Under the pieces are notes generated by a model. The model saw only the letters and a list, made by a program, of their open reading frames with translations. It did no database searches and was not told the origin of the DNA. 64,000 nt of DNA. Source: a virus. A program made the position numbers and the translations under genes. The DNA lies in IMG/VR virus record IMGVR_UViG_3300034683_000142, positions 1-64,000 of that record; one strand, written 5' to 3'. Shown piece by piece: positions 1 to 64,000 of this stretch (positions within the stretch are counted from its first letter, which is position 1; every line of letters begins with the position of its first letter).

Positions 1-476
1 CTGCATTAACTCTAAAATTTGATTCAGGAACTACAGAAGGAACTAATTTATATACTTATAATGGTAGTACAGCTAAAACAATTGATATAAAAGCTGGAAC
101 AAATGTTACTCTTACTAAAGCAGCTGGGGTTATAACAATAAATTCACAAGATACAACTTATTCATTTTATGATTTACTCTTTAAGAATGCTACTGATACT
201 ACAGTAATGACCTATAAACCAGCTACTTCTCCAAGTAAAACAATCAAACAAGGTAGTAATATTACTATGTCTGTTGTTGGAGATGTTCTTACTCTTGGAG
301 CTATAGATACTTGAAGAGATGTTAAATTAAGGACTCCTGGAGCATCTTCTGCTACTAGTATAGGTAATGAAATATTAACTTTTGGAGAAGAATTCAATTG
401 GGACGCTACAAATAAAGAAGTAAAGTTAGGATGAACTGAAGTAGCAGCTAATGGTACAGTTACCTATACTTTTTAA
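1..476 (+). CDS. Tail fibre-like protein, C-terminal part (5' truncated; TGA=Trp)
   Basis: Frame 3 is open from the window start to TAA 474-476 if two TGAs are Trp (AIDT-W-RDV, KLG-W-TEV). Thr/Gly-rich beta-type sequence. Confidence 0.7.
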
Positions 477-489
477 TAATTTATAACAT

Positions 490-3918: not shown

Positions 3919-4479
3919 ATGAAAATGGATAAAGTAAAATTTTATAATTGTATTAGAAGTACAATATTTGGAAAATTATTACAAAATCAAGTTGATAGTA
4001 TAGAAGCTATACTTAATGAATGTAATAATATGGATGAAAGAAAAATAGCTTATATACTAGGAACTGTTTACCATGAGACTGCTAGAACTATGTTACCCAT
4101 AGAAGAGTATGGTAGAGGTAAAGGTCATTTATATGGTAAAAAAATTAAACACAATGGAGAGATATATTCTTATCCAGATAAATTATATTATGGTAGGGGT
4201 TTTGTACAGCTAACTTGATATGAAAATTATGAAAAATTTGGAGAGTTGTTAAATATACCTTTATTAGAAAACCCAGAACTAGCTTTAGATACAAATGTAT
4301 CTGCAAAAATACTTGTAATAGGTATGGAAAAAGGGTTATTTACTGGAAAAAAGTTAGATAACTACTTTAATGAGGAAAAAACAGATTGAAGAAATGCTAG
4401 AAGAATAATAAATGGACTAGACAAAGCAGATACTATAGCAAACTATGCTAAAAAATTTTATAATTGTTTAAGTGAATAA
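3919..4479 (+). CDS. Endolysin, glycoside hydrolase family 19-like, 186 aa
   Basis: AYILGTVYHET, YYGRGFVQLT-W(TGA)-YENY, LLENPELAL and D-W(TGA)-RNARRIING are GH19 phage lysin motifs. Ends at TAA 4477-4479. Confidence 0.9.
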
Positions 4480-5923: not shown

Positions 5924-8900
5924 ATGGGAGAATTTATAGAATTGATTGGGCAATTAAAGCCTAAAAATAATGGTAATTTTCCTATCGCTGATACTACTGA
6001 TTTAATTGGAGGGTATATTCAATTAGACTATGTAGCACAGTTAAATGAATACCTAAATACTGGAAAAGTAAGACAAGGTATGTTAGCTTATGTTACAGAG
6101 ACTAATAGAATATACCAATATCAGCAAGGAATATGAATCCCATGATCTGGTGGATCTGGTGGAGATGGAGGATTATCCATTATTAAAGTAGATAATCTCT
6201 CAGATTTAAATAATACAGCATTAAAAGTAACTGGACAATTAGTATATGTAGAAGAAGTAAAAGATTTAAGACTATATAATGGTGTAGAATGAGTATCTTT
6301 TAGTAAAATATATATACAACCTACACCTCCAGAAGACAAGGGAGGTATTTGAATAGATACTTCTGATGAAAAAACATATACAAGCTCTAATGGAATAATT
6401 TTAAATTTATTGCAAATACTATCTATTTTAGAAGAAAGAGTTAGAAGAATAGATTGAGCATTAGGTAATCAATTAGACTTTGGAGATTTTTCAAATAATC
6501 ATTATCAAGAATATGAAGATTATGAAAATCCTATAGAACCTTCTTATGGTACAGATACAGAAGAGGATTTTTGAAGACTTTCTGATAATTTACTAAGTGT
6601 AGTAGAAGAATTAGAACCTACACAATATAAATCTATAACTCCAACAGGTAAGCATTTAAGTATAAAAGGAGGAACTTATGCTGATATGATAAAGTATAAG
6701 GATAACTTTTTACCAAATGAACTACTATGGTGTGAGGATAGAAAACAACTATGAATAAAAGATAAAAGGACAAATAATTTAGTAATAATTGGTTCTGTTG
6801 GTGGAACAACCCCAGAACCTGATGACGATACTATGGAGCAAATACTAACGCAAGTTGTAGGTACTGGAACCAATACAGAAACAAAAATTATTGGAATAGA
6901 ATTTGGAGATATGGCCAATCTAGAAAACACTTATAGATTAAGTGTAAAGAATGGTAAACTAGATTTATATGATTATAGACTAGATAAAAACACTCTTGCT
7001 GGTAATGCCCAAGTAGTATCTAGTGGTGAATACTATACTAAACCATATTTTCCAATTCTTAGTGACTTTACAGGAAATACTAATTCTCCGATGATTTATA
7101 TAAATTCTTTATATGCTGGTGGGGATAGTACTTCTAAAGATTATAACCCTTGTTCACATAACTTTATTGAGTTATGTAATTTAACAAATATTGATTTAAA
7201 TTTAAAAGGGTTATACTTACACTATACAGAAAAGAATTCAGGACAGTGGGTATCATTGCCACTAAAAGGAGTAATAAAATCTAAAAGTACTTTTTTAATT
7301 AGAGGTGCTCAATGTTCTGTTATAGATATTAACACTACTTATATAAAAGTAAATACATTTGATATAGAGTGAACAAAAGATTTAACCTATAATCCAGATG
7401 TATTAGCAACTACAAATCCAGAATATAATATCTGGGATGAAAACAATTTAATAAGATTTTCTAACAGCTGTTCATTTTATATAAGTGGAGAGCCTTCTGA
7501 AAACTATTTTGCTACTAACATACTATCTGACACAGCTCCATGAAGTACAGTAGGAGTAAAAAAATGGTATGTAGATTTAGTAGGTATAGGTTCTTATAAT
7601 GGAACAGCAATGCCTAATGAAGGAGCACCTATTCCTGCTGTAGGTAAGAATAATTTATATGTTAGATACCATACTATGGATTTTATATCTCAAGCTATAA
7701 AAGCTACAACAGCAAGAAAAAATTCTTCTGAATGAACTTATATAGACATGAGTGTAGATAATCCAAAATTAAATAAATCTGTATATATACCTAAGGCATC
7801 ATATGAATCAAAAGATGTATTTTATAACAAAACAAAATTAACTGATGGAGCACCAAATATAATAACTTGTTCTTTTGGACAAAATGCTCATACTACAAGA
7901 TGTTTTAATTGAATATCTAAAGGATATTATAATGAATATATATGGTTTGCAGATTCAGAAGGTAATTATATAGAAGAAAATAAATTTGAGTCATTTAAAG
8001 CAGGTGATAATAGACCATCTACTAAGAATTGAAATGATCCAATATATGATAGAATAAGAATTATTGCTACAGATGGTACTGCATTTACAGTACATAAATT
8101 TATAAAAGATTGAGCAGAAGTTTCTGAACCTACAGTTATTAAATACAAAGTAGGTAGAGATAATGCTTGGTCTGAAGAAAGATCATTTACATTAAGAAAT
8201 CGTAATGATGTTATTAACTCAGGATTTAATTTTCTACATGTAACAGATCAACAAGGATTTAATCCAGAAGAATTAGAAACTTGGAGAGTATGTGCAGAAT
8301 TTATTGATAATGATAGAGTTAATAATGATTATGATTGAGTAATGAATACAGGAGATGAAACTCAAAATGGTAATAGAATTGGAGAATGGATAGATTATTT
8401 TAAAGGTGGAGAAGTTATATTTAAAGATAAAGAACAAATGTATGTTGTAGGTAATAATGACCTTTCACCAGAAGATTTTACTATATTAGGAGATGGTGGT
8501 GATTTAAGTAAAATAAATCCTTATAATGTATTATTATTCTTTACATTTGAACATCCTTATGAAATACCTAGAAGCTCTACAGGAGTATATATTCCAAGTG
8601 TATATAGTTTTATATATGGAGATACTTATTTCTTAGCTATGAACTCTGAAATATCTTCATTAACTAATGATTTAGTATTTGAAGTACCTTCTAGTGAAAA
8701 TGTATATACAGATGATATTAAACCTTGAGTAGAGAGGGATATGCAGCATTTTGTAGATGATAGTATAAAATGAAGAGTAGCATTTAATCATGAATCTCCG
8801 TTTACTATTATAACAGCAGAAACTATAATGTCTTATGTACATGCTGGAGAGGGAGGAGCACTAGTAAAAGATTTAACTTCTGAAAGAGGTGGATCTAGAG

Positions 8901-9550
8901 CTAATACTGTAGGAAATTATTGATTTTCTGAATTTTTACAAAATAATGAATTTAATATGTGTTTATGTGGTCACAAACATACTTATGCTAATTCTAAATA
9001 CTTAAGAGATGATAGCACTCTTACTATGGAACCTATAGTTTATGATCCTACATATAACCCAGAAACTGGTACATATCCAGATTGGTATAATGCTTTGCCA
9101 GAAAGAGAAAAAATGTGTGTAAGATTAAGTAATGATACAACACAACATTATGTAAGATATGTAATGTGTCAAGCTACTGGTTATAAATTAACTTCAAATA
9201 AAGAGTTACCTGCTAAAAATATACCTTGATTATTAGAATATTATCCTGTTACTGCACAAGTTGAAAATCCAACAACAAATACTGCTAGTGTAACACCTAA
9301 TGCTGCACAAAAATTTCCTCATTATATAATATGGAATATAGGAAAAGGTACAGAAACAGAAACTACAACAATAGTACCAGAACGTGATAGAATAATGGGA
9401 AAACCTTATAAAATAGTTTTATCTGCTAGTCCTACTACTCTTTGAGCATATCATTATAATAATCCAATACATTATACACAATTAACTAAAGTTCCAGCAA
9501 ATGGATCAGTTAATCCTACTAGAAATATAATTATTGAAAAATTACAATAA
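5924..9550 (+). CDS. Virion-type multidomain protein: attachment region, lamin-tail domain, purple acid phosphatase-like metallophosphoesterase, 1208 aa
   Basis: ORFs 5924, 6833, 8342 and 8957 share one frame and are separated only by TGA. LTD motif SHNFIELCNLTNIDLNLKGLYLHY. Calcineurin-like motifs TDQQG, NTGDETQNG, VGNND, KWRVAFNHESP, LCGHKHTY, preceded by an FN3-like PAP N-domain (YKVGRDNAWSEERSF). Confidence 0.8.
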
Positions 9551-12500
9551 TGAAAATAAAGCATTATGATTTTGATTTACAGAAATGAGTTATTGATGGA
9601 GCATCTAATTCAAGCGATTTAGAACTTTCTAATCCAGCCTACTTAGATGACGAAGGTAACTCAATTTCTGTAGATCAGGGATTTACAAAAGTAGCAAATA
9701 AACTAAAAGAAATAGAAGATAACTTAGCCTGGATCTATATAAACGGTGCACATGGAGGTACTGGAGGCGGTGGTGGCACTGGTGAGGGTAATATAACTAT
9801 ACAAGTATTTGAAGGCACTACTATATACACATCAACTAGCACGGCTAATTTTAGTATTCTAATCAACAATGGCACCGTGTCTAGGGCATTTACAATAGTA
9901 ATTAAAGATGTAAGTACAGGAAGAGTATTAACTACTTTAAAAAAGTATTCTCTTACAAGAATTCCTATACAACTCACAGATCTAACTGGGAATGTTGATT
10001 TAGAAATATCAGCGTATGACTCTGCTTATAACTATGCAATTCCAACATATGTATCTATAGTATATGGAGCAATAAGCTTATCTTTACAAACTACTCCAGC
10101 AAAAACAATAATAAGAGGAGCAACTTCTGAAGTTCCTGCTAATTTTACAATTAGAAACAATATATTAGGTGCAACATCATCTTTTGTTTTTAAAGTAAAC
10201 AGTTTAGTAATAGATACTCAAACTAATATAAATGTATCTCCTAAATCTATATTATATAATATAAGAGATATACTATTTAATGGTGAATTATTTCCATCTG
10301 TATATGCTGGACAAAAGTTTTATTTTGAAGCTTATGCTTCAACTATACTAAATGGTGTAGAGATACAGTCTAATACTATAACATTTGATGTTACAGCAGT
10401 AGAGGCAGATAGTTTAATAATAGTAGTTAATGGTATTTCTGAAGAAGATTCTAGTTATAGTAGTATAACACAGTATAGTCAGGGATCTCAATTAAGCTTT
10501 ACTTATTATCTAAGCTATGCTCCAATAAAATATACTACTTTTAATGTAAATTATAGTATATATCTAATGTCTAATGGTGTTAAGTTATCAGATACACCAA
10601 TAGATTCTGGATTAATACCAAATGTTAATAAAGGAATAAATTCTGTATTCTCAATAAGCACTATAAATTTGCCTATAAATGCAGAGTCAGAATATTTGAT
10701 GATAGAATTATTTGCATCATCTACTTCAGATCCTGGAGATGTATCTGCACAATATACTAAAAGAGTATATGCCGTTATTTCCGAAGCTGTAAAATTAGAT
10801 ATGTATGCAAATAATGATATACATACTTTATTGGCTTATTATTCTAGAGTAACTGGTTTTCCAGCTGCAAGTGAAACTGAATGAAATTATGCTCTTAGTC
10901 ATACTGGCAGGTTTCCATATGATGATATATTTTTCAATCAATTTCCAGATGGAGTTAACTTATACCTACACAAAACTAATGGAACTTCTACAGGATTTAT
11001 AAACAATACTGATAGAATAAATAATATACCAGGAATAGTATTAAGTGGTGGTTCTTATGCTAATATAGCAGTAGCTAATCAGATGTTTCCTAATTATACT
11101 ATAGGAGAGTTTGGATTCTTTCAACCAAAAGGTTTTAACATATCTTTTACTTATAAAGCTGATTCTACCAATGGTGTAATAATGAGTATTGGTAGATATA
11201 AAAATGATTTACTAGATTCTGGTATAGAAGTTACATCAGAAGATGTAACTGTAAAAATAGGTACAGCTGATACATTAAATGTAAAATTACCTCAACAAGA
11301 ATTACTTACTATAGATATTGATGTATCCTTATTAGGAAATGTTGGTTGGTATTTCAAAATATATGTAAATGGAGTTTTATCAGCAGTTTCTAGAGTAGAT
11401 CAATCTGCAATTGACTGGACTTTTAATCAAGATTTGTATTTTGGGTGTAGAAATAATAATGGAGTATTAAGTAGGTTTTCTAATGTAACAATATACGATA
11501 TTAAACTTTATACATCTTCACAAACTGAATATGCTATTGTACAAAATTATATATCAGCTACAGAGCAGGCTTCTTTAAATCGTGGTGTTGTAGATGAATC
11601 TTTGGATGCAGAATTAAGATCAAAGAACTTATTTGATTCTGAAGGTAATTGTTTATTATGGGATAAAGCTAATAATTCATTCTATAGCGGAGACCAGTTA
11701 TATAATACATTAAGTGCACAAATGGATGTAAATACTCCATATCCTATTGTATTAATAAGAGAAACTAGTAGCTCCTATACAGAATTTAAAGCTTACTCTA
11801 CAGCTATTTTCTCAGCAGAACAGAAAGAAGAAATTATGAGTAAAACTTTTCCATGTGAAATAACTTTTAAGAATAAGTTAGGAGAAGTTTTAATAAGCAC
11901 TCCAAATGGTGTATCAGCAAATAATGGAGTAAGGATTGGATTGCAAGGTACTTCTTCATTATCTTATAATGCAAAGAACTTTGAGCTATATATGGGTAAT
12001 AAAGATGAGACTGGTAAATTACAACTATTTCAACCTATACAAGAGTGGCTTCCAGAAAATGAATTTACTCTGAAAGCTGATGTTATGGATTCAGCACATG
12101 TCAATAACGTAGTTATAGGTAAGATAATAAATGGCGAAGTTACTAATGAAGCTGGCATACCTATAAAACCATTAAGTGCTACCCCACCGATGTTACTACC
12201 AGATTCTGTTTTTGCATCAACTGAGAAGGCACAAGAAATTAAAAGCAAAATAAAGCATACTTCCGATGGTTTTCCTTGTCTAGTATTTATAAATTTTGCA
12301 CCAGACAGAATTACAGGAATGAGAGAGACCAGGTTTATGGGTATATATAACTTCAATTTAGGGAGATATGCCAATTATAATTTAGGTCTAAAAGTACTTA
12401 CTGATTACACACCTGTAACTCCTGGAGGAGCTCCAACTATTATAGAAGATTATTCTGATTTACAAACATATTGGAACACTACACCAGCTAATGGTACTTT

Positions 12501-15500: not shown

Positions 15501-17346
15501 TACCTTTTCTGATGGAGATACTACTTATTATATACCTAAATTTACATCTATTCAGTATCCATTTTCGAGTTCTGGAAGTAATATATCCATAGATATTAGT
15601 CAGATGGGGCAAATATTCAGAAATATAAACACCACACTACTTCAAGCAATTGGTGTATTTTCTGGATTAAAAACAATTGGCTCTAGAAAAATACCTGATG
15701 ACATTTTTCAAGGATGTATAAATCTTAATAGTATAGAATCTTTATTTGCAAATAGTGATATAGATAATGATGGAGAAATATATGAATTTCCTAACCAAGT
15801 AATATTTAGAGATACAGTTTCTCTAAAAAGTATTAAAAACTTATTTAATAATACTAATAAAATAAGAATTAAGTTACTGGGGGAAGGATTTAAAAATTGT
15901 ATTCTAGAAGATGTTTCTGGTGCTTTTGCTTCTAGTGGAGTATTTGGAATTATTCCATATAGACTATTCTTTATGACTGATGGAACTTCTATAAGAAGAA
16001 CTATAAAACATATGGAAGGTATATTTAATAATTGTTGATTATTGGGATATACTGCTGATAGACAAATTAGTACAGATACATTATTAGAAACTATAACATA
16101 TCCAGATGGTAATACTGTATCTATTTATACAAATTGAGCTAATAATATAGTATCAGTTCCTGGAACTAAAGTAGATTATAAATTAGATGTAACTAATATG
16201 TCTAAATCTTATAATTTTGATAGAGATGAAAGACAGACTATTCCTAATCCAAATTATATAGCTGATCCAGCAAATAGACCTCCAGATTATGATCCAAGTA
16301 CTCCGGAAACTATTCCTAATCCAGAATATAATCCAGGAGAACAAGCATTCGATATTTGGTATTTAGATGGATATGGATGGGATGGAGCTACATCTACAGA
16401 ACAGTCTGAGTTGGATGCACAAAAAGCTAGATTACAGAGATACTTTATATATGATCAATATCAAGCACAGTCTATTCAAGATAATGCTATTACTGACTGA
16501 TATACAGAAAGCCATCAAAACTACATGATTCCAACAGATTTGTTTAGATATTGTCATAAAGAAGCTACACTGTCAGGAGTATTAAGTAGCTTATCTTGGT
16601 ATGAGCGTATAGTTGTTGTTGATCCAGCTACTGGTAAAGGTTCTATACGAACTACAAATAATATACAAGGATTAAGAGGTAGAATACCAGTAAGATTGTT
16701 TAAGTCTTTAGTAGATAATACAGAATTTAATTCTGTATTTAGTAATACTAAATTTGATGCATTCTATGGCTTAAGAGGTACAAATACTAATAATTTAACT
16801 AGAGGTATTGCATATCCACCTGATTTATTACAAAATAATGTAGAGCTAACAGATGTTCCTAATTTATTTAGTAATACAGTTATACCTATAGGAGTAGATA
16901 TTAATTCTGACTTATTTAAAAACAATATAAAGTTAAAGAATATAAGTTCAGTTTGGTCTAATTGTACATTTGATAAGAGGCCTTATAATGCAGAATCATT
17001 TTCTCCAGACCAAGTCTATTATCCACAGATTGATTTTGTAAATATATTCAAATATAATATTAAAATAACTAATGCTTCTAATTTATTTGCAGTAACAGAC
17101 ATAGTAAGAGATAATAAAGGATTGCTAATGATTACACCAGATTTATTAAGAACAGCATTAAATATAAATAATATTAGTGGTATGTTTTATTACAATATAA
17201 ATATGTATGGAGCAGTACCATTGTTCCAATCTACTATATATACAGCTTTAAATTCAGTGTATGGATACTTAACTGGAGTTAATAAATCTAACATAACTAA
17301 TGCTGATCAATTAGAACCTAGACTTATTCCTTCTGGATGAGATTAA
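9550..17346 (+). CDS. Giant 2598-aa protein: coiled-coil/Gly linker, beta-rich region, LamG-like domain, CotH-like kinase domain, LRR/BspA-like repeats
   Basis: Eight track ORFs lie in one frame joined by TGA; TAATG start, TAA 17344-17346. Motifs LQGTSSLSYNAKNF, LKADVMDSAHVNN, FMGIYNFN, GMVDSMCKN, FYDMDTAFG, WFKKRVLFLD. LxxLDLSN repeats from about 13750. Confidence 0.8.
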
Positions 17347-19305: not shown

Positions 19306-19314
19306 TAAAAAACT

Positions 19315-20733: not shown

Positions 20734-20767
20734 AAGAATTGGGGAGTTTAATCTCCTCATTCTTTTA
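20731..20767 (+). terminator. Intrinsic terminator after MCP
   Basis: TAAAAGAAT-T-GGGGAG TTTAAT CTCCTC-ATTCTTTTA stem-loop. Confidence 0.7.
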
Positions 20768-20819
20768 GATACTAATAACCTATAGATAACAATAACTTAT
20801 ATATAATAAACAATGAGCA

Positions 20820-21716: not shown

Positions 21717-21732
21717 CTAAATTGTATAACCA

Positions 21733-21755: not shown

Positions 21756-21771
21756 ATAAAAACTTAAGGAT

Positions 21772-48900: not shown

Positions 48901-51900
48901 GGTAATATAATTAAAAATACTTCTGATATAGATGATAAATACTTATCAGAAGTAGATGAAAATGGCGTATCTAATAGAGAAAATGCTGAAAATATAATAA
49001 ATGAAATTGTTGCTAGACAACCGTCTCAAGCTCTAGATACTAGATTTTTAATAGATACTTATAATAGCATAATTGATAATAGGAATGCTGATATTATAAA
49101 TACTATTAATAGATTAGAAAGCAAAGAAAATAAAACTGAAGAAGATTATCAAGTTATAGATTCATTAAAAAAATCTATATTTAGTGTAGGTTTAACTTAT
49201 GCTGAAAATCCTGCTGCTTACGAAGAGGAAAAAGAAAAAGCTAAAAATAAAATCATAACAGAAGTAGAATCCAGATTTCCAGAATTATTTACAGAAAATG
49301 AACCTAATGAATCTAAATTATCTAAAGTAGATTCTATATTAGAAAATTATACTGTATTAAAACAAAACAGTGCTTTATATGAAAAAACTGTAGATGATAT
49401 AATAAAAGATGAAGTTGGAGAAGTAAAAGAAAATTTTGATGATTATAGTAGAAGTGATTTAATAAATATCTTTAACAGATTAAAAAATATTGGTATTCTA
49501 GACCAAATAAGTCTCAAATATAGTGATATAAATGAAGAACTAGAAAAAATAGAATCTGGTGAGTATGATAAAGATACTTTAAAAAATATTTTAAGTATTA
49601 CTAATGAACATATTTTGGAATCTAAAGCTATTCTAGGTAATCCTAAATATGAAGATTTGCTTAATAAGTTATCAAATATAAATGAAGAATTATCAAAAAA
49701 TCTTAATTTATATACTCCAGATATTATGAAATTACAGAATGTAGCTTTTAGTACTATAATAAGAGCACTAGATTCTGGAATTTTAGATAGAGAGTTGTTT
49801 AATGAAGCTAAGAATATAGTGAATAATGATTTACTTGTAGCTAAAAATAAACTCTTTAAAAATGGTGATAATTTAAGTAATGAGGATTTCATAAATATTA
49901 TTAACAGCATTGATACTATAGTAGATAGAATAAGTTCTTTATCTCCAGATGTATTCTTTAGTGATGAATCTTTAGGTGATTATGAACCTTATGAGGGTTT
50001 GTATCTTATGACTTTAGCTGATTTGTTACAGACATATGATGCATTTTATTCTGGAGATTTCTCATCTATTCCTGATTTCTTCAAAGAAGAAGGTAGATAT
50101 ATGGATGAGGAAGATTTTAACTACTATTCTGAAAAGTTTAAAAATGAATTCGGAGAAGATTGGCCATTATTAAGAAAAGTATTAGAGAATTTTGATGACC
50201 CAGATGCGTATGCTTCTTCTGTTATTTTAAACATTAGTTCAGGTTTAAATAAGAATTCTGTAGGTAATGCTATAAATAACTATGAAATACTGTCCAAATA
50301 CGAAAAGAATACTAATAATTTTATTTCTAATCCTTTATATGATTTTTTAAGAAAATATTTTATATCTTTGGATTCTGGTAAAAAACCATTAACTATTTTA
50401 GATATACTTCAAAGAGAAGAAACTTCTTATAATGCAGCTTCTGGTGCTTCTAATTTTATATCTGATGATATAAGAGAACAAGATGTTAGACAAGCTATAC
50501 AGATGCTTGAGTTATTAAAAGTAAATATAATGGCTGCTAGCCAATCAGATGTTAATGGAGAGTTGCTAGGATTTATAACTTTAAGAAAAAAATATGCCGA
50601 AAAATCTGGAATAAAAGATGATGTTCTTGATTTAAGAACTATATCATCTGATGAAGGACAGTCTATGATTAATGATATAGATCGTCTTATAATAAGATTA
50701 GATTTTATATCTGGATTAGCCACTTTTAATAGGAAGAGAACTGCTGTAGAACAGGAAGAAATAGGTAGAAAAATGGATAATGTTCTACTAAGTACTTGGG
50801 ATACTATTATAAAAAGTGAGATAGGTAATGAATTCATACCTTTAGAAGCTATACAAAATGCTTTAAGTTCAAATAAAAAATCAAGTGCTAAGTTATTAGA
50901 TATAGAAGATGCTGTATATGAGCATAATAAAAATAGAAAAATAGATGCTTTTAGAGTTTTAATAAGAAATTTTGAAGGAGCTGTAGTTGGAGAAAGGTCT
51001 AATATAACCAAAGATATGACTTCAGCAGATGTAGTTCAAATGGATTTAATAAACTATTTAGCTACTACTTTAGCAGTTAAATCTTCTAGCTATTGAACAA
51101 GAAGAAGGAAGAATCTTGAAAGAGAGGGTAAAGCACCGTTTTATATGCAGGAGTTAGTTGCAAAAGAAACTTATGCTTCTATAGTTAATCCAGATCTATT
51201 TGCAGAAACCTTTAATGTAAAGAAAAATGCTTTAAAAGATGATACTAGTTCAATTACTATAGTATTAGGGTCTGCTGGTTCTGGAAAAACTACAGCTATT
51301 ATGGGTTCTGTTATAAATGATATAAAAGATTCTAATCCAAAATCAACAATATGGTTAAGTGCTCCCAGTCAACTACAAACTGATAATCTTACTAAAGCAA
51401 TAATTGATGTAACAGGCAACGAAGGATTGTATTATACTAGCTTTAATAAGAAACAATTATTTTCACAGTTTGGAAGTGAGGTAGAAAAGTTATATGATAG
51501 AATTCAAGATAGTATAAGAAATCTTGACAGTGTTAAGACTTATACTTGGGAACAACATCAAAAAGGTGAAGATAGGTCTGAACTATTTAGCATAGTAAAT
51601 GATGCTTTATTTTTTAATATCCCAGAAGATATATATGATAAAATAGACTTAAGTAAAGCTCCAAATTTATTAATAATAGATGAGGTAACTCACTTTTCTA
51701 ATCCAGAATTACAACTGTTACATGCTATATCTCAAGTTTCTAAAAAGAGTAATAGCAATTTTATGAAAGTTGTTGGTCTTGGAGATCAAAATCAGCTAGG
51801 TTATAAAGTTAAACATTTAAATCAATATATAAATTTCAATATAGAAGGAATAAATGCAATATTTACTCCTGTACTATTAACATCTGTAAGAGCTAGTAAT

Positions 51901-54900
51901 GATCAACAAAGAGTAAATAATGATTTACTTCTTAATTTGGCATCTAAAGCAGACAATATAACTTCTGATATTGCAGATGTAGCAACTGCTAATGCTATGG
52001 TTAGGTCTATGCTTAGTGATGTAAATGTAGTAACTGGACTTAAATACTATTTAGATAATAATTCTTTTAAAGGTACTTATATAGCTCATTCTTATAGAGA
52101 TTTAAATCCTCTTTCTGTTATTGCAAGAGAGTATAAGAATGGCAAAAAGAATAATAAAACTGTTACAATTGGAGTTATAACTTCTACTGGGGATATTGAT
52201 GAAGAGTTATTAAGTAGTTTGGATAAAGTCGGGCTTTCTAAGGATGACATTACAATATTTAGTGCTAATAATGTTCAAGGTAGTGAAGTTGACTACATGA
52301 TTTTTGGTACAGAAGATATATTGAAATATGATAAGCTTAAAGAAAATCTAAGAGCATTATATACTTTTGCATCTAGAAGTAGGTCTGCTAGTATTATAAT
52401 AGATCCAGATAATAAATTAAATGATGTATTAAGTATTACGAATGCAGATAAATCTTTATATTATATAGATTATGATCCATTAACCCCTACTTTAATAGAA
52501 GATCTTAAAAAGAAAAGATTGCAGGATTTAGATGAGTTGTTAAAAAATATTGATAGTCAGTTAGAAGATTTTAAATGGATATCAGGAATTACTACAACAA
52601 CCCCTAGTACAGATATTGATTTTGGTGCAGTTGCTAATCCAAATTTATATTTAGATACTCCAGAGGATAACAAAAGTCTTAAAATAATGAGTGGGAAAAT
52701 TAAAGCTAATGACTTTAAAATAATGCTTCATTCATTTTATAATAGTCCTGGAGCTAAATTATCTATAGAAGATGGGAAACCCTCAAAAATAACTGTAGAT
52801 AAAGAAATGCCTAATTTTGACTTAAATGGATTAAAGAATGTAACTTCTAAAGATAAAGCAAAAAATATAGTAAATCAATGAGTATCTCTTAAGTATAATA
52901 TATTAAATAAAAGACCAATAAAATCTACCGACTATAAGGATTACTTAAGTCATATATTTGCGGGAAACTTTAATAACCCTACTAATATAAATGTAGAATA
53001 TATGACTGTAGTCCAAAGATATAATGAAGAATATCATGACCCTTATGCTAAATATGAAGGAGATTCTAGTTTATATTTAAAGAACACTGATTTATTCATA
53101 AATTTAGTAGCAAAAATATCTATAGGTGATAAGAGCCATTTTATAACTTTGGCAAATTTTCCTACTAAAGATACTTTACTTTCAGAAGGTTTAAAACAAG
53201 TCGATGGGGATGTTTCTACATTAGAATCTAAAATAAATGATTTTTATGATAAGCTAGAACATGACATACCATTAGATTTTAAAGGATTTAAAAAACTTAA
53301 TAATATAGATATTAGCAGTTTTCAACCAATTACTAGTACTAGATTAGTAACCAAAGATTTAGATAATAAATCTATCTACACATTAGATACTTTATCTGAT
53401 AAAATACCAGGATTAAAATATAGTACTATAAAAATATTTCCTGGAAATATAGATGATTTCAAAAATTATGTAAATAAGTACACCTTTGGAGAAAAAAGAT
53501 CTGATGAAGAATTAGGAAAACTATTTAATATATTAAAAAACAAGCCACATATAATAATATCCTTTGATTCTGATTTAAATGGTTCTAATGAAAATAGTCA
53601 GGCTAAGTTAATGCCGATAGGATCCAAATCAAGAAAGTTAAATGAGCTTATTGATGAAATACTTAATCTAAAGAAAGATGCTAATATAGAATTAACTCAA
53701 TTTTATAAAAATACTAGTAATGGTGTTTATACTCCAAGTAAGGAATTAAATGCTAAATTTGAGACAGTTTTAAATCCTTCTCAAATACTAGATATGTTAA
53801 TAAAGTGAGTGCAAACTGATATTGATATAAATGGGGATAATATTAAATTAATAGACTTATTATCTAGAGAGATTAATTTTGAGAATACTAATGATATTTA
53901 TCAAGGTAATAAATCTATATTAGATCTTATAAATAATTTCAAAGAATCTACTGTTACTGGAGAAAAACTAAAAGATGTTATAAAAATAGTAAAAGATACC
54001 ATAAATAATAATCCAAAAGCTGAAGCTAAAGAAATAAAGGATTCTGTTATCAAACAGATTAGAAAAGGTTATACTGGGTGACATTGGAACTTCTATAATT
54101 TATTTGCTTATGCTGATATAATAGATCAATCTTTTAAAAAGAAGATTTTTGAAATGGTAAAATCTGGCTATCTTATAGATAGAGATATAGATTTTGAGTC
54201 TGAAGGATTAAAAGAACTTAAGGGTAATATTGAAAAACTATTTTATCCTATAAAAAATTGAGGATTTTACTATAATGTTCCTATAAGTTTAGATAAAAAT
54301 TCTAATATTGTAGCTAATGAATATATAAGTGGAGAACATGGGTTTAGTCCTAAATATTTTTCTGATAAATTCTTTATAACATCTACTCCAGAAGGGCCAA
54401 GACTTTTATTAGATTTTAATTCTGTAATAAATAGTAATCCTACTATTGTGGATGAAAATAAAGCTGAACCAGTGCCAGATATAGTAAAAGAAGTTACAAG
54501 AAACACAGAAAAAGAACCTATTTTGGATTTAATTAAAGAACAAACTCTAAATACACCGAGAAATCCTATTTCAAGTACTAACAGTGATTCTACAGTATAT
54601 AATAATACTATAGATATATCTAGTATAGAAATCAAAGATGTTAATGGAAATATTATAAAACCATTTACTGACTTTAATGTAGATATATTACCAGGTCTCT
54701 TAGATGGTGCTAATATGTTAAATAGAAAGGATGAAGCTATTAGTAAAATTAATGATGCTATAAATACTTTAGTTACTACTATATCAACAGGTTCAAATAT
54801 ACTTGGGGTTCCTAAAACTGGGTATGAAGCTATTAGAGACTTTTTAATATCATTAGCAGAGTTTGGAGATGGTTATGTAGAAGACGGTGATTTACCAACT

Positions 54901-55032
54901 TCAATAGATATTATTAAAGCTTTTTATGGAGAAATTTCTAAATTACCTAAAGAAGTTAAAGAAAAAATAAAGAATTCTAATTTTAGAAATTCTTTAAATA
55001 AATTAATAAAAAATATTAATCAATGTAAATAA
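45946..55032 (+). CDS. Giant cargo protein, 3028 aa, containing an SF1 helicase-like P-loop domain
   Basis: Nine track ORFs in one frame joined by TGA. GSAGSGKT, LIIDE, GDQNQ, VQGSEVD and LYTFASRSR at about 51260-52390. Confidence 0.8.
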
Positions 55033-58000
55033 TGCATACTTGTAGTAATAAAATTCAGAAACGCATTATCGAGGCTATGGATAACTACCTCCTTGATGCT
55101 GATAATCCTACATTTTTAGATTTAGAAGAGTATATAGCAGAAGAACTTGGAAGAGATACTTTTAGTTTTAAGGAAGTATCCGATAATGCTCCAATAATTA
55201 CAAAATTAAAGGACATATTTGGTGAAGATATAGACTTGTCATCTGACGAGTCTATATCTCACTATTCTAATATATTAAAGGATGTAAAATCGTACTCTAT
55301 AGATGATTTGTTTCATGGTATTCCAGCTGCTAAAGTAGAGTTTGATAGCTATGTTAAAAGAGTTGTAATAGGAGAAGGTGTATTAGGTAAAAACAATGAT
55401 GATACCTATGCAGTAAATGATGAACAGTTAAATAATAATTTTACTAGAATAAAAAGTGATTTATTTAACAAAATTCAAGATTTTCTAATCAGTAAAAATT
55501 TATATCATGGGGATATTCTGCCTTTATATAATGAAGAAGGAGTAGCAAATTATGATAGTTATGTAAATATAATGACTATTATTAATGATTATTTTTTCAA
55601 TAATCCAGAAATACCTATTATAAAATCATATACTAATAAGAAAATACCTAATCTATCAGTAAGTGATGCTAATAAGCCTATATTAGAAGCATACTATAAC
55701 ATGATTTTACTTTCTAATTTTGATACTGTTATAAGTACAAAATTTAAGAATTTCTTTAAAGTAAATTTAAATAAATTTAATCTATTAGATTCTGGGTTTG
55801 GAGAAAATTTGAAATACTATTTAAAATTTGATCCAATAACTACTCCATATTGAAGAAACGATAATCACCAATCTGATAGCTCTGAAGAAAGAACTGATGA
55901 ATTTACAAGAAATATTGTAAGTATCATACCTTTGTATAATAAGTATGGTGTTAAAACTGACGAGTATCTTGAGGTAAATGATCTTTATTTAATAGCTGCT
56001 AAAGTATCTGAATTTGAATTACGAGAAGGCAATAGGCTAAAGAATCAAAATACCAGCTTTGACTATTTTAATAGTAATCCTATAGAAAAACTCAAATGGT
56101 ACATAGAAAATATTAACAAAGCTATAAGTAGGGAATCAGATTCAATACAAGAATTAAATAGATATTTTGATTCTATATATGATAAGATATTATCTATTGA
56201 TAAATTTATAAATGAATCTGAATATAATATAGCTAAAAAAGAGGTTAATTCTGGAAATTCTATATTAGGTTATATAGCACAAGTAATTAATAACAATTAT
56301 GGAACTTCATATGCATCTTATGATATTAAAGGAAAATATAATGTACAAGAAATGTATAACCAAGATTTTAACTCAACTAGGGTTCAAAGTACTGTATTTT
56401 CTACGTTAAAGATGCACTATGCAGATAAGGATTTTTATAATATATCGGATGACTTTGAAGAACTTTTTCCTAATAGAATAGATACAGTTGATAACATATT
56501 ACATGCTGTAGAATCTGGTGAAATAGACTACAATAAATTAAATAAATATATAACTTCTAAAACAGGTATAGCAATGTCTAAACAATCTTTAATTAATACT
56601 ATTAAAGATGTTTCAGTACATAATAAAAATGGCAATCCTGTTAACGGTATAGAATTTAAAAGTATGCTTAAAGAATTAATGTTAAATCTTAAAGCTGATT
56701 TTAGTTCTGATACATTTAGAGAAGCTGTAGCATTATCTAACGATAAATCTGTTAGGTTAGATTCAACTGTTGGTAAGTATTTATCAAATACAGTAAAAAA
56801 TCCATTATTTATAGCTCTAAAAAATTCTTTCATAGATAAGTTTACTGTAAAAGTAGTAATGAATGCTAATACAGCAAATGGTGATACAATACCTTCTTTT
56901 AAAATAGGAAATCTTACATACAAGGACACACAGTTATTTGACTTAAGAAGACAATATGAAAGAGAAAATCCAAATGGATTTTTTAAAAGTTTGTTATTGA
57001 AAGACAGTCCAGCTATTCTTGGAACTTTGACTAAACTAGAAGTAGTTAGAAAAGGAAGAGCCAAAGACTATTCTAAACTTACTCCAGAAGAACAATTTAT
57101 ATCCGATTTTAATTATGACTTTTTAAAGAGTTTAAATTATTTTGGAAGATTTTCTGTAATATTAGGAAACTATTCTGATAAACCAACAATACTAGCCAAA
57201 ATTATAAATGGAGATTTTAAGTTAACAGAAAATGGCAAGCCAATTGTCAGGGAGTCTATTGATACTATATTAGAAACTGTAAGAGTACAGTCTTTTTCTT
57301 ATTATTCTGATTTATTAGATAGTATATTTTTAGATTATAAAAATATATTTGATATATTAGGTATTAAAAATAATATAGATTTAAATTGGAAAAATAATAA
57401 TAAATTAGAAGACAATGTAAAAAACATAAATGATATTCTTAAAGTTAATAGTATATCAAGTATAAATGATAGGCTCGCTGATATATCCCCAGATAAGAGA
57501 CCAAATTTGTTAATGCAAGAACTTCACTATTCTAAATATTCTAATGGAACTTTTTTAAATAATCTTATCTTAGATAATTACCTAATATTTTCAGATAGTT
57601 CTAAAGATGGGTTGTTTTATAATATGTTTGTTCCTAGAACTGAAAGTTCTTTCATAACTAAATTTTCTAAGTTTTCTAATCCAGATTCTTTACATATAGA
57701 CAAGAATGAAATTGATAGTTATTTAAATTTATTAAGTATAAATAGAGAAGACTTTAAGTCAAAGAACGGTAGTAAATCTACTTATGAATATGATTCTTTA
57801 CTTATAAATAATAAATTAAATCCATTTGTAAAGAAATGGCTTTGATTAAATTCTTTATTTAGAAATGAGTATTTATATATAGGAGTAAAAGGAGAGTATA
57901 TGCATCCTCATAAGAGCAATATACTTTTTAGATTTGGAAGTGATGATAAAAACTATTGGGATAATTACTTTTTAGAAATGTCTAAAAGGATGATTCCATT

Positions 58001-61000
58001 AGGTAAAAGAAATGTTACTTATACTGCTTCTATAGAATCACCTATTAGAAATTCTAAAAGAGGTGTTCCAGATAAGATTAATGTTGCTGCAATAGAGGAT
58101 TATAAATCTAATATATATACAACTTCTGGGTATAAAAAAATTGGAGCAGATTCACATGATGGCTCTTCTTTCTTAGATTATGTATATAGTAAAATGGTTG
58201 ATGAATCTTTTCCTGGAAAAGGTTATTCTGGAACTAAAAAACAGTTTGCTACCTTTGTAACCCCATATGGTGTCACAATTAAAAAAGATGCAGAATCAGT
58301 TATAACTAATGCTAAAATACTAGCATCTGGAGATTCTGACATTAATCTTCTTCATATTAAATATAAGATGCTAAACATTCCTATAGGAGATGCTGTAAGA
58401 TTAACATATAATTCTGGGAGTTTAGCTAATTATTATATAATAAGAAATGGTGTTAGACTTAGAGTAAATTCTATAAAGATAAACAATGATGATGGTGGTA
58501 ATTATATAAGTATAAACTATTCTAAAGGAATAGAAAAGGATGGCCAAATTATATATACTGGCTCTATAGACACTAAAGAATATATAGATACTTTATATGA
58601 TATATGAAATCATATAGGTGCACAATACTCAATAGATGTAAATGGAAACTTTAACGAAGAATCTAATGAAAGGTTATATGATATAGTTATAAATACTAAC
58701 AATGGTATTTTAAAAACTAAAATGATTCATATACTTTCTAATGTATCTGCATTAAAAGCAGGAGCTGCTGGAGTTAATAGTGTTTCTAGATGAAAGAGTT
58801 GGGATTCGTTATTATATTCTACTTATAATAGTAGATTTATGGGGCCTCAGTTGGATGCTTCTCATGAAGCTGATCAATCTGAAATTAGGGAAGTATCTCA
58901 AGTTATTTCAGCTTTATCACAAGGAGGTTTTACAGCTGATATAGCTGATGAAGCCTATAGAGATATAGCTAATGTCATAGCTAAGTCTATGGATAAGTAC
59001 TTAAAACATATGAAAGTAGATAATGTTGATAAGAATGCATTATATAATATGTTAAGTGCAAAATTCATTAGAAGCATACAAAAATCTGATAGAGAGGAAA
59101 TAACTAAAGACCTTATAAATATTTTATTAGATAATGGAGTACCTGTACCATTTAGTAATCAAAATTTTTATAATTTATATGTAAGAGAAATAATAACAAC
59201 TCTAAATAATGACTTTATATCTAGAAATTATCCTGGAATAGGTGGAGTGTTGATACCATCTCATGGTATGATACAACTCTACGATGTATTAGATGGAAAC
59301 AAATGGATAACTGTTACTCAAGAAGATATTGTTAAAGAAGCTTTATCAGTTCTTAGAAATAATGAAAAAGTACCTGTAAACAGTATTAAATTATATGACA
59401 CAGTAGTAATAGGTGGAATAGAGTTATCAATTGATACAGAGCAAAGATTAAGATGGTTGAAAGATAACTATAGTGATAGACTTGTTGAAAAAGTACCTGA
59501 ATGAAATAATGAAGATTTTGTAAACGAATATATAGTTAATAAATTAAAAGATATTTTAGTAAATTCTGAAGACATAGAATTAGGTGATACTATAAGAATA
59601 GATGGAGAAGCTATTACATTAGATACTCCAGCTAAATATTATTCTTTTAAAGAAAGTGGGCCATCTACTGTATATAGAGTTTTATCTAAACCTAGAGACT
59701 TAAAACCAACTTTACATACTTTTAAAGAAATAGTATATGATCCACAAACTAATTCAGAAATTACTATACACAAAAATACTTTTGATATTCAACCTTTAGC
59801 TTTATTATATAAATATACAGAAAATATATTAAATGATAAGGACAAAATTATTATCAATAATATAAAAAATTATATTGGCAATGAGAATATAGTTAAGTTT
59901 TTAAGAGCTTGGTATCAGAGAGATCTTCAATTATTAGATCACGGTTTAATAATGAAAGAACTTAAAGAAACAGATAATGTATCAGAATATTTTAAGAATG
60001 ACAATGTATTAGAGGATATATTACAAGATGTATTATCTTATTATCAAAATAATGCAAATAAAATAGTTGATTTAAGATTTAAGCCTGCTGAAATAATGAT
60101 GCCAGACATCTATAAATCTACTTTTAATAGAGACGATAATGATAGTTTGTATAGGATAAAAAAAGAGGGGCCTAAATACTTTAAAAATAAATTTGATATA
60201 TTATATGACTATGATAATACAGAAGCTGATATAAAAATTGTAACTAGTGATGTTAGTAATCCTGTTTATATAAGACTTGTAACTAAATTAACTGGTGTAA
60301 ATAATGTAAATATAAAAAGAAATCCAGATGTTGATTATGAGTTATACTCTAGATATAATGAGGTTGGTGATAGGTTATACGATTTAGTAGATTATAAAAA
60401 CATTAGAGCATTCTCTGAGGGAGGAAAAGAAATAATAGAAATTAAAGTTGGATATACTGATAAGAATGGTAAAAATATTCTTAAGAGAAATGCATTTGCT
60501 AATGTAGAAAGACTGATAAAATCTTTTACAGATATAAGAGCTATTGTCCCACTAAATAATGGAAATATTAGTTCAGCTTATTATAGTAATATAGTAAGTA
60601 AAGAGGAAATGTTAGATATATCTGAACAAGAAATAAAAAATGTAAAAAATGATGATTCTTTAGATCCTGTAAATGTATATTCTAATATATCAAACATATT
60701 TTCTAAATATAACGATATTAATCTAGTTGGAATAGATACCTCAAATAAAAATTGATTTTCTAGTAATAAAGAATTAATTTTAAATAGATTAGCTAATTCT
60801 ATATATGCTTCTTGGGAAAAATCTCATGATGTAGTAGCTTCTCGTATTCCTTCTCAATCTATGCAATCATTTATGCCTATGCGTAATGTTGGATATATAA
60901 AAGGTAATACAAATGATGTATATGTGAGTGTACACCAGATATTTCTACAAGGTTCTGACTTTGATGTGGATAAGGCTTATATATTAGGACATGGATTCTT

Positions 61001-64000
61001 GAATAATGGTAGAACTGATTTATGAACTAATCTAAGTTCATATTCTACAGTAGATCAGTTAAATGCATTAATGCAACTTCCTATGCCTAGTGGAAAGATT
61101 ATAAATATTATTGAAGGTAATGGAGACCCAAATTTAGAAATTCTATATAATCAAATAGCAAATAGTTTAGCTAATGTATCATATGAATATGAATTACCAA
61201 CTGAAACTATTCTATTATTTAATAAATTTATAAGAGCTTTACCAACTACTAATCTAGATGTATTACCTATAAATATAAGTCAAGAAAATCCTAATTTATC
61301 TTTTAATGAGTTTGAGAGATTGTTAAATAAGCATACTACATATACTGATTATAGTACAAGTCCATATAGTGTTAAGAATTCTATTGTTCAAAAAATAAAT
61401 AAAGTTATTTCTTCTGCTAGTAATCAAATTAATGCTAATACACCTGTTGATGTACAACCATTACATGATGCTATCAGAAATGTTCAAAATAAAAGAAATG
61501 GACAAACTCAACCTAAAAACGTAAGTAGTTCTAATAATATAAATAGTTCTAATAATAATGAAATAGGTAATCCTAATATAGTTTTTCGCACGTCTTCATT
61601 CAGTGATTATAAAGACAGAACTTATGAAAATGCTTCAGCAGATGCAACTATAGCATTAGCTACAGATTTTAATAGTTTTGGTGAATTAGCTACTAAAGTA
61701 GCTGTTTTAGGACAAAATAAAAAATATATACCTATTGATGCTAACAACTTAAATGTAACGCCAGAAAGAGTTGATAAGATAGTTAATGAACTAAATAACC
61801 TATCTAATCCTACTCCTATTTTAAATTATTCTAAATTAGAAGAAAAGTTACAACTATCTACAAAAGAAAAACCAATTATTGTTTATGTTGATGGTAGTGA
61901 TATTAAAGGAACTGGTGCTATTGGATTTGGAGTAAATACCACTTATGATAATAAAGAGTATTCTATATCTGGCTCATTTGATACAAATAACTTATCAAGT
62001 TTAGAAAAAGATTTAGGTATTAAATTAAAAAATAAGCCTTCCAATGCTGTAATGGAGTTTTATGGATCTTTAGTAGCATTGAGAAATACTCCAGAAAATG
62101 AATATATTGTTATTAGACAAGATTTAGAAGGTGTACAGCTTTGAATTTTATCAGGATTAATGGAGAGATTTTCTAATCAAAATCTAGATACAAAAAGCAA
62201 GTATGATTCTTGGTATAAATCTTTAACTGAAGAACAAAAGCAAGATTACTATAATAAAGTACAAAATATAATAGGTCTAGATAAAAATTTAATTTCTAAA
62301 TTTGATTGGGACGGTAGAAAAGGATTTTATGCTGAAGATATGACTGTTAGAGCAATTCAGCAAAAGATAATAGATATTATATTAAACAGAAAAGGAAAAG
62401 TAAAATATCAATGAGTTAGGGGACATTCTGGTGAAGCTGGTAATGAAAAAGTAGATGCTATTGCAAAAGAAAGACGTAACTATAATACATATAAAGATTT
62501 ATTTAATAAATCCGCAGGTAAAGAAAAAAATACTGAAAATAATTTTAATTCTGATTTATCTAGTTTAGAGAAGAATGCTAAAAAAGAGATATCTCTTAAT
62601 ATAGCAGGCAATGGTATTTATACTATGAAAGGTAAATATACTCAAGACCAAGTTGATGAATTTACCTATAAATTATTAAAAGCTATTATTGAGTCTCCTA
62701 ATCTTAAATTAAAAATTAATTCTATTAGATCTGGTGGTCAAACTGGATTTGATGAAGCTGGTGCTAAAGCTGGTATAAAATTAGGAATACCTGTTACTGT
62801 CTTAGCTCCCAAAGGTTGGAAATTTAGAGATATAAATGGAAAAGATATTTCTGATGAAAAGAAGTTTAAAGAAAGGTTTAATAATGTATTAAACAAAAAT
62901 AAACAGATAAGTAATCCTATTCTAAGTAAAGAACAAAAAGAAACAGTAAAGACTCCAACTATACAACATATTGCTGATCATGATAGTGACTTAGGAAAAG
63001 ATAAAAAAGGGTATGAGCAATTTAGAATATATGAAAGGATTGATAATCAGGATGGATATAGTTTAGCTTATGGTAAACCTATTAAAATTAAAGGATTTGA
63101 AGAATTTGATTTTTATTTAGCAGAAAATCAAGAAGGAAGACCATGAACTACATATGAAAAAAGAACAGGTAGAATTACAAGTCGTGGAAATACTCAAAAA
63201 GAAGCAATTGAGAGTCTTCAAACTGGATTAAACTCTGTTGGATTGGATAATATGAGGAATATTATATCAAGTCAAAGGTCAGTTTATGAAGAAAATCAGG
63301 TAGAAGAATTTAATACAGAAGAAGTAGAAAATATATCAGATGAAGATAATTTAAATTCTCATGATATGTTATCTTATTATCAACAACAGTATGATGCTTC
63401 CGTAGGTAAAGATAACACTGGTATAGCTGCTAATGGAGTAAAAGGATTGTTTGCTTTAACTGCTTATTATAATAATTTCTTTTTAAATACTTGGGGAAAT
63501 AAAGATCTTACTGATACAGAACTTAGACGTAGTAGTAAACTATTTAAGAAGGATATTAAATTCAAGGATGATTTTGGAAATGATGTAAGGATATTTATAG
63601 GAAGCTTGCCTGATGTACTTATAAATAGAAAACAAGAAGAATCTTTAAAAAGAGTTTTAGGAGATAATTATAGTAGATTATTTCCAAATAGTGCTGTATA
63701 TATGAGTGCATTTGTATCAGCTGCAACAGACAATGCAAAAGAGCTTATTATGGCAAAGGTTAATGCTTCACCAAAATTAGCAGGAATGCACGCTTATATG
63801 ATAGCATTAGGATTTACTCCAGATCAAATTACTGAGTTTATGACTTCTAAAACAGCTTCAAAAATTGTTTTGAGATCTACAGATAATATATATGATGATG
63901 GTATTAGTAATTCTGTTACTAGGGTTATAAAGGAACTAAAAGCTGATCCTACCGTAAATAAAAGTCAGTTATTAGCGTTTGAACAATTATACCTAGATTC
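55032..64000 (+). CDS. Virion-packaged RNA polymerase (two-barrel, crAss type), more than 2989 aa, 3' truncated, with inserted SLOG and RNase H domains
   Basis: Single frame open to the window end. SRIPSQSMQSFM then catalytic GSDFDVDK (60951-60974), later GIAANGVK and SAATDNAKEL. Confidence 0.88.

Follow-up and report, generated by a model that had tools for sequence, protein, structure and literature searches.

The DNA examined here comprises positions 1 to 64,000 of IMG/VR virus record IMGVR_UViG_3300034683_000142, a stretch of 64,000 nucleotides (nt) that we refer to as the window. Our subject is the apparent use of TGA as a tryptophan (Trp) codon in its genes, together with the tRNA that may decode it. 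IMG/VR lists the record as a linear contig of 98,884 bp with a G+C content of 28.5%, and CheckV estimates it to be 53% complete. The window is the first 64 kb of this contig and holds 30 real genes, all tightly packed on the plus strand, in a block that continues past the window to contig position 73576, as does the reading of TGA as Trp. From contig position 74,257 to the end, genes on the minus strand encode ThyX, an ATP-dependent ligase, ribonucleotide reductase, an AAA ATPase and a Toprim primase, with open reading frames (ORFs) for LAGLIDADG proteins in and around the ribonucleotide reductase gene. Because the virion and lysis genes lie on the plus strand and the replication genes on the minus strand elsewhere in the contig, the window is the virion and lysis late block of a crAss-like phage, probably of the Zeta type.

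The signature virion genes of Zeta-like Crassvirales are present, including those for the major capsid protein, the muzzle protein and giant proteins of 2,598, 3,028 and 3,492 amino acids (aa); matches to the Pfam families CrAss_Ring_1 and CrAss_Ring_2 are weak and under their cut-offs. Matches to PHROGs comprise a major head protein family, tail-fibre families and an endolysin family, and the terminase models PF03237 and PF17289 gave no match. Three relatives serve for comparison throughout: G004, an IMG/VR record of 178 kb that CheckV rates 100% complete and that is TGA-recoded like the window phage; MT835470 (117 kb), which uses the standard code with an ORF cover of 0.94 under table 11; and MT835492 (121 kb), which is TAG-recoded, its ORF cover rising from 0.51 to 0.91 under table 15. 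Three codes, namely standard, TAG recoded and TGA recoded, are thus found among phages with capsid proteins 45-65% identical to that of the window. The features of the window are as follows.

1..64000, plus strand: block of late genes for virion and lysis proteins; TGA occurs in frame 136 times, TAA and TAG only at gene ends
3919..4479, plus strand: GH19-type endolysin with sense TGA at 4216 and 4387 (Pfam Glyco_hydro_19; PHROG endolysin family)
5924..17346, plus strand: two giant translationally coupled proteins of 1,208 and 2,598 aa, with 19 and 18 sense TGA, joined by TAATG at 9550; the 1,208-aa protein has a Metallophos domain
18337..24344, plus strand: capsid-proximal cluster of six genes in which TGA is nearly avoided (1 TGA, 15 TGG)
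19315-20733, plus strand: major capsid protein, within the preceding cluster (0 TGA, 8 TGG)
24356..28323, plus strand: ring-protein-like gene and two neighbours (ring match below the Pfam cut-off)
28351..32124, plus strand: crAss muzzle protein with 14 sense TGA (Pfam crAss_MUZ, E = 1e-24, above cut-off)
32146..35781, plus strand: repeat-bearing tail or virion protein, whose repeat copies pair TGA with TGG
39811..55032, plus strand: three large virion (cargo-like) proteins of 1,415, 632 and 3,028 aa with 3, 5 and 10 sense TGA, and with orthologues in MT835470 and G004
55032..64000 in the window, plus strand: giant 3,492-aa protein with an RNase HI-like domain, ending at 65510, with TGA at the motif Trp (62412)

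In-frame TGA codons in the late genes

Under table 11, no ORF in the window exceeds 780 aa, and those of 100 aa or more give a cover of 81%. When TGA is treated as a sense codon, the longest ORF grows to 3,034 aa and the cover to 98%, and no comparable gain in ORF length or cover results from treating TAG as sense. A comparison of coding density across codes, proposed by an earlier reading made by a model from the letters and their ORFs (hereafter the sequence-only reading), therefore singles out TGA. Within the 20,677 codons of the 30 plus-strand genes we counted 136 in-frame TGA and 108 TGG codons but not one TAA or TAG, whereas the other two frames of the same genes contain 1,087 and 1,659 TAA and 915 and 568 TAG codons, respectively. 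In AT-rich DNA, 136 in-frame TGA codons with no TAA or TAG rule out chance, pseudogenes and sequencing error. These TGA codons are evenly distributed within genes and have no strongly preferred following base (chi-square p = 0.07). The sequence-only reading also held that every gene ends in TAA or TAG and that coupled genes overlap as TAATG. Both statements are correct: all genes end in TAA except for a single TAG at 5218, and TAATG overlaps are found at 3384, 5462, 9550, 44058 and 55032. Annotation of the record has to treat TGA as Trp in the late block and apply the standard code to the early block, as table 11 splits the giant virion proteins into dozens of false ORFs.

The use of TGA varies along the block. 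While the recoding itself is real, the claim that it runs across the whole late-gene block has to be narrowed, since 7 of the 30 window genes are without TGA and the capsid-proximal cluster is nearly so. This cluster contains 1 TGA to 15 TGG, compared with 151 TGA to 108 TGG in the rest of the block (Fisher p = 3e-5). At the other extreme, all eight Trp codons of the gene at 25008-26147 are TGA, and the orthologous codons in G004 are also TGA. The avoidance of TGA around the capsid gene is weaker in G004, and may for this reason be specific to the lineage. One possible reason for the bias is that abundant virion proteins may in this way escape dependence on suppression.

Tryptophan at TGA and the code of the early genes

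Window proteins translated with X at each TGA were aligned by tblastn to MT835470 and MT835492, neither of which uses TGA as a sense codon. Trp stood opposite 22 of 79 window TGA codons, against a background of 1.0% (binomial p = 1e-25), and glycine (Gly) opposite none; the remaining residues (Y, F, L and I) resemble the spectrum found opposite TGG codons of the window. A likelihood based on BLOSUM62 placed W first at -224, with Y at -253, F at -254 and G at -343. The TGA codons also fall on positions at which Trp is conserved in solved structures. Entered as X, the TGA at 4216 aligns with the W of GRGPIQLSWNYNY in GH19 chitinases, and that at 62412 with the second W of KIKWEWVKGH in structures of E. 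coli RNase HI, which forms part of a W-V-K/R-G-H motif. These positions had been picked out by the sequence-only reading, and we recovered them as QLT-TGA-YENY (4216) and TD-TGA-RNARR (4387) in the GH19 domain and as KYQ-TGA-VRGH (62412) in the RNase H domain. The internal repeats cited in the same reading are likewise as described: two repeat copies carry GGC-TGA-ACA at 33748 and GGT-TGG-ACT at 33997, and the three copies of DGSGxxANxxIxW use TGA at 35221, TGA at 35266 and TGG at 35389. With TGA counted, Trp makes up 1.18% of late-gene residues, versus 0.52% from TGG alone; in the early block TGG alone gives 0.79%. The columns opposite TGA are thus neither Gly nor random, and together with the likelihoods and the invariant Trp positions the alignments indicate that TGA is a Trp codon in the late genes.

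Two other readings of the in-frame TGA codons deserve mention. TGA could encode Gly (table 25), as in Gracilibacteria and Absconditabacteria, or another residue, and since tables 4 and 25 produce identical ORFs, the frames themselves do not distinguish between these codes. Set against this are the absence of Gly from 79 columns in which approximately five would be expected (p = 0.008), a likelihood of -343 for Gly compared with -224 for Trp, with the aromatic residues Y and F as the next best candidates, the presence of TGA on invariant Trp positions of both GH19 and RNase HI, and the pairing of TGA with TGG in internal repeats, all of which make this assignment highly improbable. We give practically no credence to the notion that the TGA codons are errors of sequencing or assembly or the marks of pseudogenes, for which nothing speaks except the fragmented ORFs under table 11. 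Such errors would not be expected to yield 136 TGA and no TAA or TAG over 20,677 AT-rich codons, nor to recur at the same positions in independent assemblies, as these TGA codons do in G004 and related IMG/VR loci.

In the early block TGA is used differently. In the late block, 152 of 275 Trp codons are TGA, compared with 12 of 70 for the early genes. The majority of these 12 apparent sense codons are N-terminal over-extensions of ORFs or true stops. A real sense TGA is found in the gene for a resolvase-like PD-(D/E)XK nuclease, where both relatives have W, and two LAGLIDADG ORFs probably contain real sense TGA codons as well. The stop codons of the early block are TAA (30), TAG (2) and TGA (4). 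The gene at 85792-87135 ends in TGA where its G004 counterpart has TAA, that at 89256-90266 ends in TGA-TGA, and that at 92798-93280 ends in a TGA followed a few codons on by TAA. G006, a 59.2-kb contig of 98% identity, supplies the rest of the minus-strand block; 11 of its 54 ORFs end in TGA, and in 9 of these 11 a TAA or TAG follows within 1-4 codons. Taking G006 and the window's own contig (G000) together, early genes ending in TGA have an in-frame TAA or TAG 1-5 codons later in 11 of 13 cases. This second stop looks like a back-stop against read-through once a suppressor is present.

In the complete 178-kb genome of G004, in-frame TGA is likewise confined to the late block. Table 4 is therefore not used genome-wide, as the early block avoids sense TGA and employs TGA as a stop. 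The occurrence of TGA as a stop in early genes and as Trp in late genes of one genome points to a host with the standard code and a switch driven by the phage. The suggestion made from the letters alone that the host uses the standard code is borne out by the gene at 85792-87135 and the 11 ORFs of G006, and a standard host code is most likely.

A tRNA(UCA) gene and its intron in sister strains

The window's own record covers a part of the genome, and sister contigs extend it. G001 (59.6 kb) is 97% identical to the window over positions 2315-35596 and adds 22.8 kb upstream of position 1, and its far end overlaps the far end of G006. Compared through their overlaps, G000, G001 and G006 suggest a circular genome of approximately 153 kb; the genomes of relatives span 160-178 kb.

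Searches for a decoder within the record were negative. ARAGORN with default settings detected no tRNA in the window or in the whole 98.9-kb contig, Rfam at gathering thresholds had no match in the whole contig, permissive Rfam searches of 73.5-74.3 kb returned terminator-like matches at chance level only, and a genome-wide scan for a UCA hairpin with a T-arm found none in the contig. The release-factor domain PF00472 (RF-1/RF-2) is absent from G000, G001 and G004. A tRNA-like gene at 73722-73947 on the minus strand was considered as an opal suppressor and rejected, as its TTTCAAA cannot be closed by a stem and the gene cannot be read as UCA. Its acceptor stem is perfect and it has both a class-II-like D arm and a T arm, with approximately 170 nt in the place of the anticodon and variable arms. 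The G006 version retains the first 28 and last 30 nt around a wholly different middle, and we found neither an Rfam match to it nor a homologue beside the thyX genes of 61 other loci.

The intron-aware mode of ARAGORN found a tRNA(UCA) gene with a 620-nt interruption in G001. This gene lies upstream of the window, 16.7-17.4 kb from its first position, and is approximately 1.1 kb into the rightward transcription unit. The sequence-only reading had placed a suppressor tRNA or release-factor system outside the window. The tRNA part of this expectation is supported by the 97%-identical G001, that is, in sister strains and not in the record itself; the search for release-factor genes was negative, as given above. 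The eight genes around this tRNA contain no TGA, and TGA use begins approximately 4 kb downstream. Proteins of 706 and 724 aa encoded upstream in G001 are not recognised by Pfam. Once spliced, the tRNA would be 72 nt long with G73 and an anticodon arm of GTGGT-CTTCAAA-ACCAC. This arm is identical to that of the uninterrupted tRNA(UCA) of G004 and differs from that of G004's own tRNA-Trp(CCA) only by U in place of C at position 34, and the same flanking-gene orthologue adjoins tRNA(UCA) in both genomes. Of G004's 27 tRNAs, tRNA-Trp is the one that the spliced sequence resembles most, and Gordonia phage OneUp has an annotated tRNA-Trp that matches the 3' exon of a homologue. G004 possesses both UCA and CUA suppressor tRNAs, yet only TGA is recoded, which has also been reported for the phage Lera. 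Exact-pattern scans of viral and metagenome contigs with the tRNA exons matched only G001, and across the overlapping 97-98%-identical contigs we found the suppressor and two odd tRNA-like genes. Just downstream of tRNA(UCA) in G001, within the TGA-free module, is a gene for a Dam-type N6-adenine methyltransferase (L038:3130-3990; Pfam MethyltransfD12, E = 6e-62), located between the tRNA and a gene that in G004 comes immediately after the suppressor.

The interruption lies between U34 and C35 of the anticodon; the 5' exon ends in U and the intron in G. Intronless alleles delimit it, as two of the 97-98%-identical contigs (L039 and L041) have, in the corresponding position, a tRNA(UCA) of 72 nt with no interruption, next to a protein 100% identical to that of G001. 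The BLAST alignment breaks exactly at the predicted borders (2105/2726 in L038, from G001, versus 152/153 in L039), and two pairs of the anticodon stem show compensatory differences between intron-bearing and intronless alleles. The intron contains an ORF of 160 aa that matches Pfam PDDEXK_5 (E = 7e-11) and whose sole PDB match is 2OST, which we take to be I-Ssp6803I, the PD-(D/E)XK homing endonuclease of the Synechocystis tRNA-fMet intron. This endonuclease has 77 homologues in the protein collection searched, some of them on contigs of up to 204 kb. In all 22 IMG/VR loci identified with a profile of these homologues, GGTCTT precedes and CAAAACC follows an intron of 527-707 nt that ends in G.

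RNAalifold, applied to the non-coding 3' parts of 11 introns, predicted 23 pairs, 10 of them with compensatory changes. We interpret these helices as P7, P8 and a GAAA-looped P9 hairpin. The intron alignment also contains the group I motif AAGAUAUAGUCC, and one member matches the Rfam family Intron_gpI (RF00028; E = 1.3e-4, 30.5 bits, below the 50-bit threshold). Taken together, these features suggest a mobile and putatively self-splicing group I intron. Tblastn of the endonuclease against GenBank phages gave no match and blastn of the intron core gave short matches only, so that the intron cannot be tied to the published Zeta genomes listed as having opal recoding and no suppressor.

Five genomes that carry the intron are 160-178 kb in size and 91-100% complete, and TGA is the only in-frame stop codon in their muzzle homologues. 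In two of them, G013 (171 kb, with direct terminal repeats) and G014 (168 kb), ORF cover rises from approximately 0.68 to approximately 0.87 under table 4. Default ARAGORN reports 17 and 9 tRNAs, respectively, and no suppressor, whereas the intron-aware mode finds the split tRNA(UCA); no other suppressor is detectable in either genome. A suppressor gene split by a group I intron would thus be missed by tRNA finders run in bacterial mode.

In the endonuclease ORF itself, codon 4 is TGA in 14 of the 22 loci and codon 23 is TGA in two more, a third member having TGG at codon 23. For the 14 loci with TGA at codon 4, translation of the endonuclease would require the very tRNA that its gene interrupts. 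Several copies of the endonuclease are cut down to 18-76 codons, which is what decay of a homing endonuclease gene would be expected to produce. Other tRNA genes in these genomes also appear to be interrupted. At 57008-57312 on the minus strand of G013, a class II tRNA is split after ...CTT by a 216-nt intron that lacks an ORF and has the same core motifs. ARAGORN calls this tRNA Ser(tga), but by hand it reads as UAA (Leu) with the intron between U34 and A35, the position of the cyanobacterial tRNA-Leu intron. G014 contains an Arg(tct) candidate with a 359-nt insert.

A two-code genome and its proposed decoder

The observations as a whole are best explained by a genome written in two codes, in which a phage-encoded Trp-type tRNA(UCA) enables the late genes, and we put the probability of this explanation at about 0.88. 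The replication genes, which are early and lie beyond the window on the opposite strand, would be read with the standard code, some of them ending in TGA. The late genes, with more than half of their Trp codons as TGA, would be translated only after a Trp-type opal suppressor tRNA (UCA) of the phage has accumulated. Its gene would lie at the head of the rightward transcription unit, approximately 17 kb upstream of the window, in a short TGA-free module. In some strains and in many relatives, an intron would have to be spliced out before the suppressor could function. Four parts of this account are inferences: possession of the tRNA by the window's own strain, the charging of this tRNA with Trp, the splicing of the intron and the timing of late proteins by this arrangement.

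A more specific proposal is that the switch depends on a ribozyme. In genomes whose only opal suppressor gene is split in the anticodon by the mobile group I intron, late translation would need splicing, and the same arrangement would explain suppressors missed in Zeta-type phages. We consider this proposal somewhat better than an even bet. If true, a split suppressor would explain, at least for the Zeta-type group, why surveys miss suppressors in TGA-recoded genomes, and regulated or required splicing would constitute a new layer in the timing of late proteins in abundant gut phages.

Several points weigh against the two-code explanation or against parts of it. The tRNA(UCA) region lies outside the window's own contig, the gene having been seen in sister strains, and the only tRNA-like gene on the contig (73722-73947, minus strand) is not readable as a UCA tRNA. 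The proposed charging with Trp rests on G73, on the similarity of the anticodon arm and on the Trp columns of the protein alignments, and the proposed timing is taken over from the literature. For the intron, Rfam gives no match to the G001 copy and none over threshold in any member, and neither a P1 helix nor an internal guide sequence was identified, there being no consistent guide of at least 5 bp.

Alternative sources of a TGA-reading tRNA must be set beside the phage-encoded tRNA(UCA). The strain may have no suppressor of its own and rely on a host tRNA, or on the near-cognate tRNA-Trp(CCA) after the phage has inhibited release factor 2, as might be surmised from a 98.9-kb contig without a canonical tRNA and from the many recoded phages in which no suppressor has been detected (PMC7886860; Borges preprint, 10.1101/2021.08.26.457843). 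The contig is only a fragment, however, and its 97-98%-identical sister contigs carry tRNA(UCA) at the syntenic site. Leaky read-through cannot produce genes with 10-19 TGA codons, and complete relatives yield their "missing" suppressor once introns are allowed, so that we regard this route as unlikely. Still less likely is a host that reads TGA as Trp throughout, as Mycoplasma and Spiroplasma do with table 4, in which case no switch would be under phage control. Table 4 does open all late frames, and the genome is AT-rich at 28.5% G+C. Such a host would not account for the share of TGA among Trp codons falling from 152 of 275 in late genes to 12 of 70 in early ones, most of the 12 being stops or artefacts, nor for early genes that end in TGA, nor for close relatives that use the standard code or recode TAG. 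Furthermore, host predictions for Zeta crAss-like phages comprise gut Bacteroidales and some Firmicutes genera and include no table 4 lineage (PMC12386605).

Recoding of TGA and TAG in crAss-like phages is already described (Yutin 2021; Borges 2021), and the sequence-only reading had stated that some of these phages recode stop codons; what we report for the window is in this respect a known phenomenon in a new genome. Yutin et al. 2021 characterized the Zeta group as having genomes of 145-192 kb dense in introns and inteins, in which some branches recode TGA, others recode TAG and others keep the standard code; reassigned codons occur mostly in late genes, and suppressors often go undetected (PMC7886860). 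Several Zeta genomes are listed in a 2025 paper as having opal suppression without a suppressor tRNA (PMC12386605). The window phage resembles these phages (Yutin; Lera, PMC12386605) in its large AT-rich genome with introns and homing endonucleases, in reading TGA as Trp chiefly within structural and lysis genes, with the standard code kept for replication genes, and in having sister lineages with TAG recoding or the standard code. Its relative G004, with 27 tRNAs that include UCA and CUA suppressors, is comparable to Lera with 26. Unlike them, the lineage of the window has very few tRNA genes and a capsid cluster nearly free of TGA, and in some strains the suppressor gene is split by an intron, which we did not find described in PMC7886860 or PMC12386605.

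Under the proposal of Borges et al., late and lytic genes are timed by recoding. Their survey recovered a suppressor from just 35% of the TGA-recoded genomes, raised the suspicion of non-canonical tRNAs, and noted that homing endonuclease genes favour TGA (10.1101/2021.08.26.457843). Our observations agree with this timer in the confinement of code 4 to structural and lysis genes, in the location of the suppressor within a standard-code module upstream of the recoded genes, in the preference of homing endonuclease genes for TGA, and in the strong preference for TAA stops at low G+C. They differ in that no phage release factor 1 (RF1) or tryptophanyl-tRNA synthetase was found here, and in that, for this group, the candidate cause of the missing suppressor is an intron in the anticodon. 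This result addresses a puzzle stated in all three papers, namely recoded phages without a detectable suppressor, and intron-aware tRNA detection would be a simple fix for surveys.

Introns in tRNA genes have precedents in bacteria and phages. The tRNA-Leu(UAA) of cyanobacteria and plastids has a group I intron in the anticodon loop, and the phage intron resembles it in its position between U34 and N35. As in such bacterial introns, the 5' exon ends in U and the intron in G. The Synechocystis tRNA-fMet gene contains a 655-nt group I intron that encodes I-Ssp6803I (PMC1995217), and the phage intron is similar in its length of approximately 600 nt and in its ORF of approximately 150-160 aa for a PD-(D/E)XK endonuclease. 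The phage intron departs from these bacterial examples in that its host gene is a phage opal suppressor, such that splicing would gate the change of code, in that its endonuclease ORF has the codon-4 TGA in 14 of 22 loci, and in that P1 was not found and self-splicing is only predicted. Lak megaphages also have introns in tRNA genes (Devoto et al. 2019, PMC6784885). In that study alleles occur with and without them and bacterial-mode prediction misses them, as here; the introns are called enigmatic, are placed in Tyr, Thr and other tRNAs with no report of a suppressor, and receive no group I or endonuclease assignment in the text consulted. In the limited collection of literature searched, we found no description of an intron-split suppressor tRNA, and its novelty is probable.

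Within the late block itself, the only sizeable non-coding gaps are at 4480-4954, 17347-17556, 38093-38321 and 39492-39810. An ORF on the minus strand at 4484-4783 appears to be spurious. The four gaps could be the sites of promoters or terminators.

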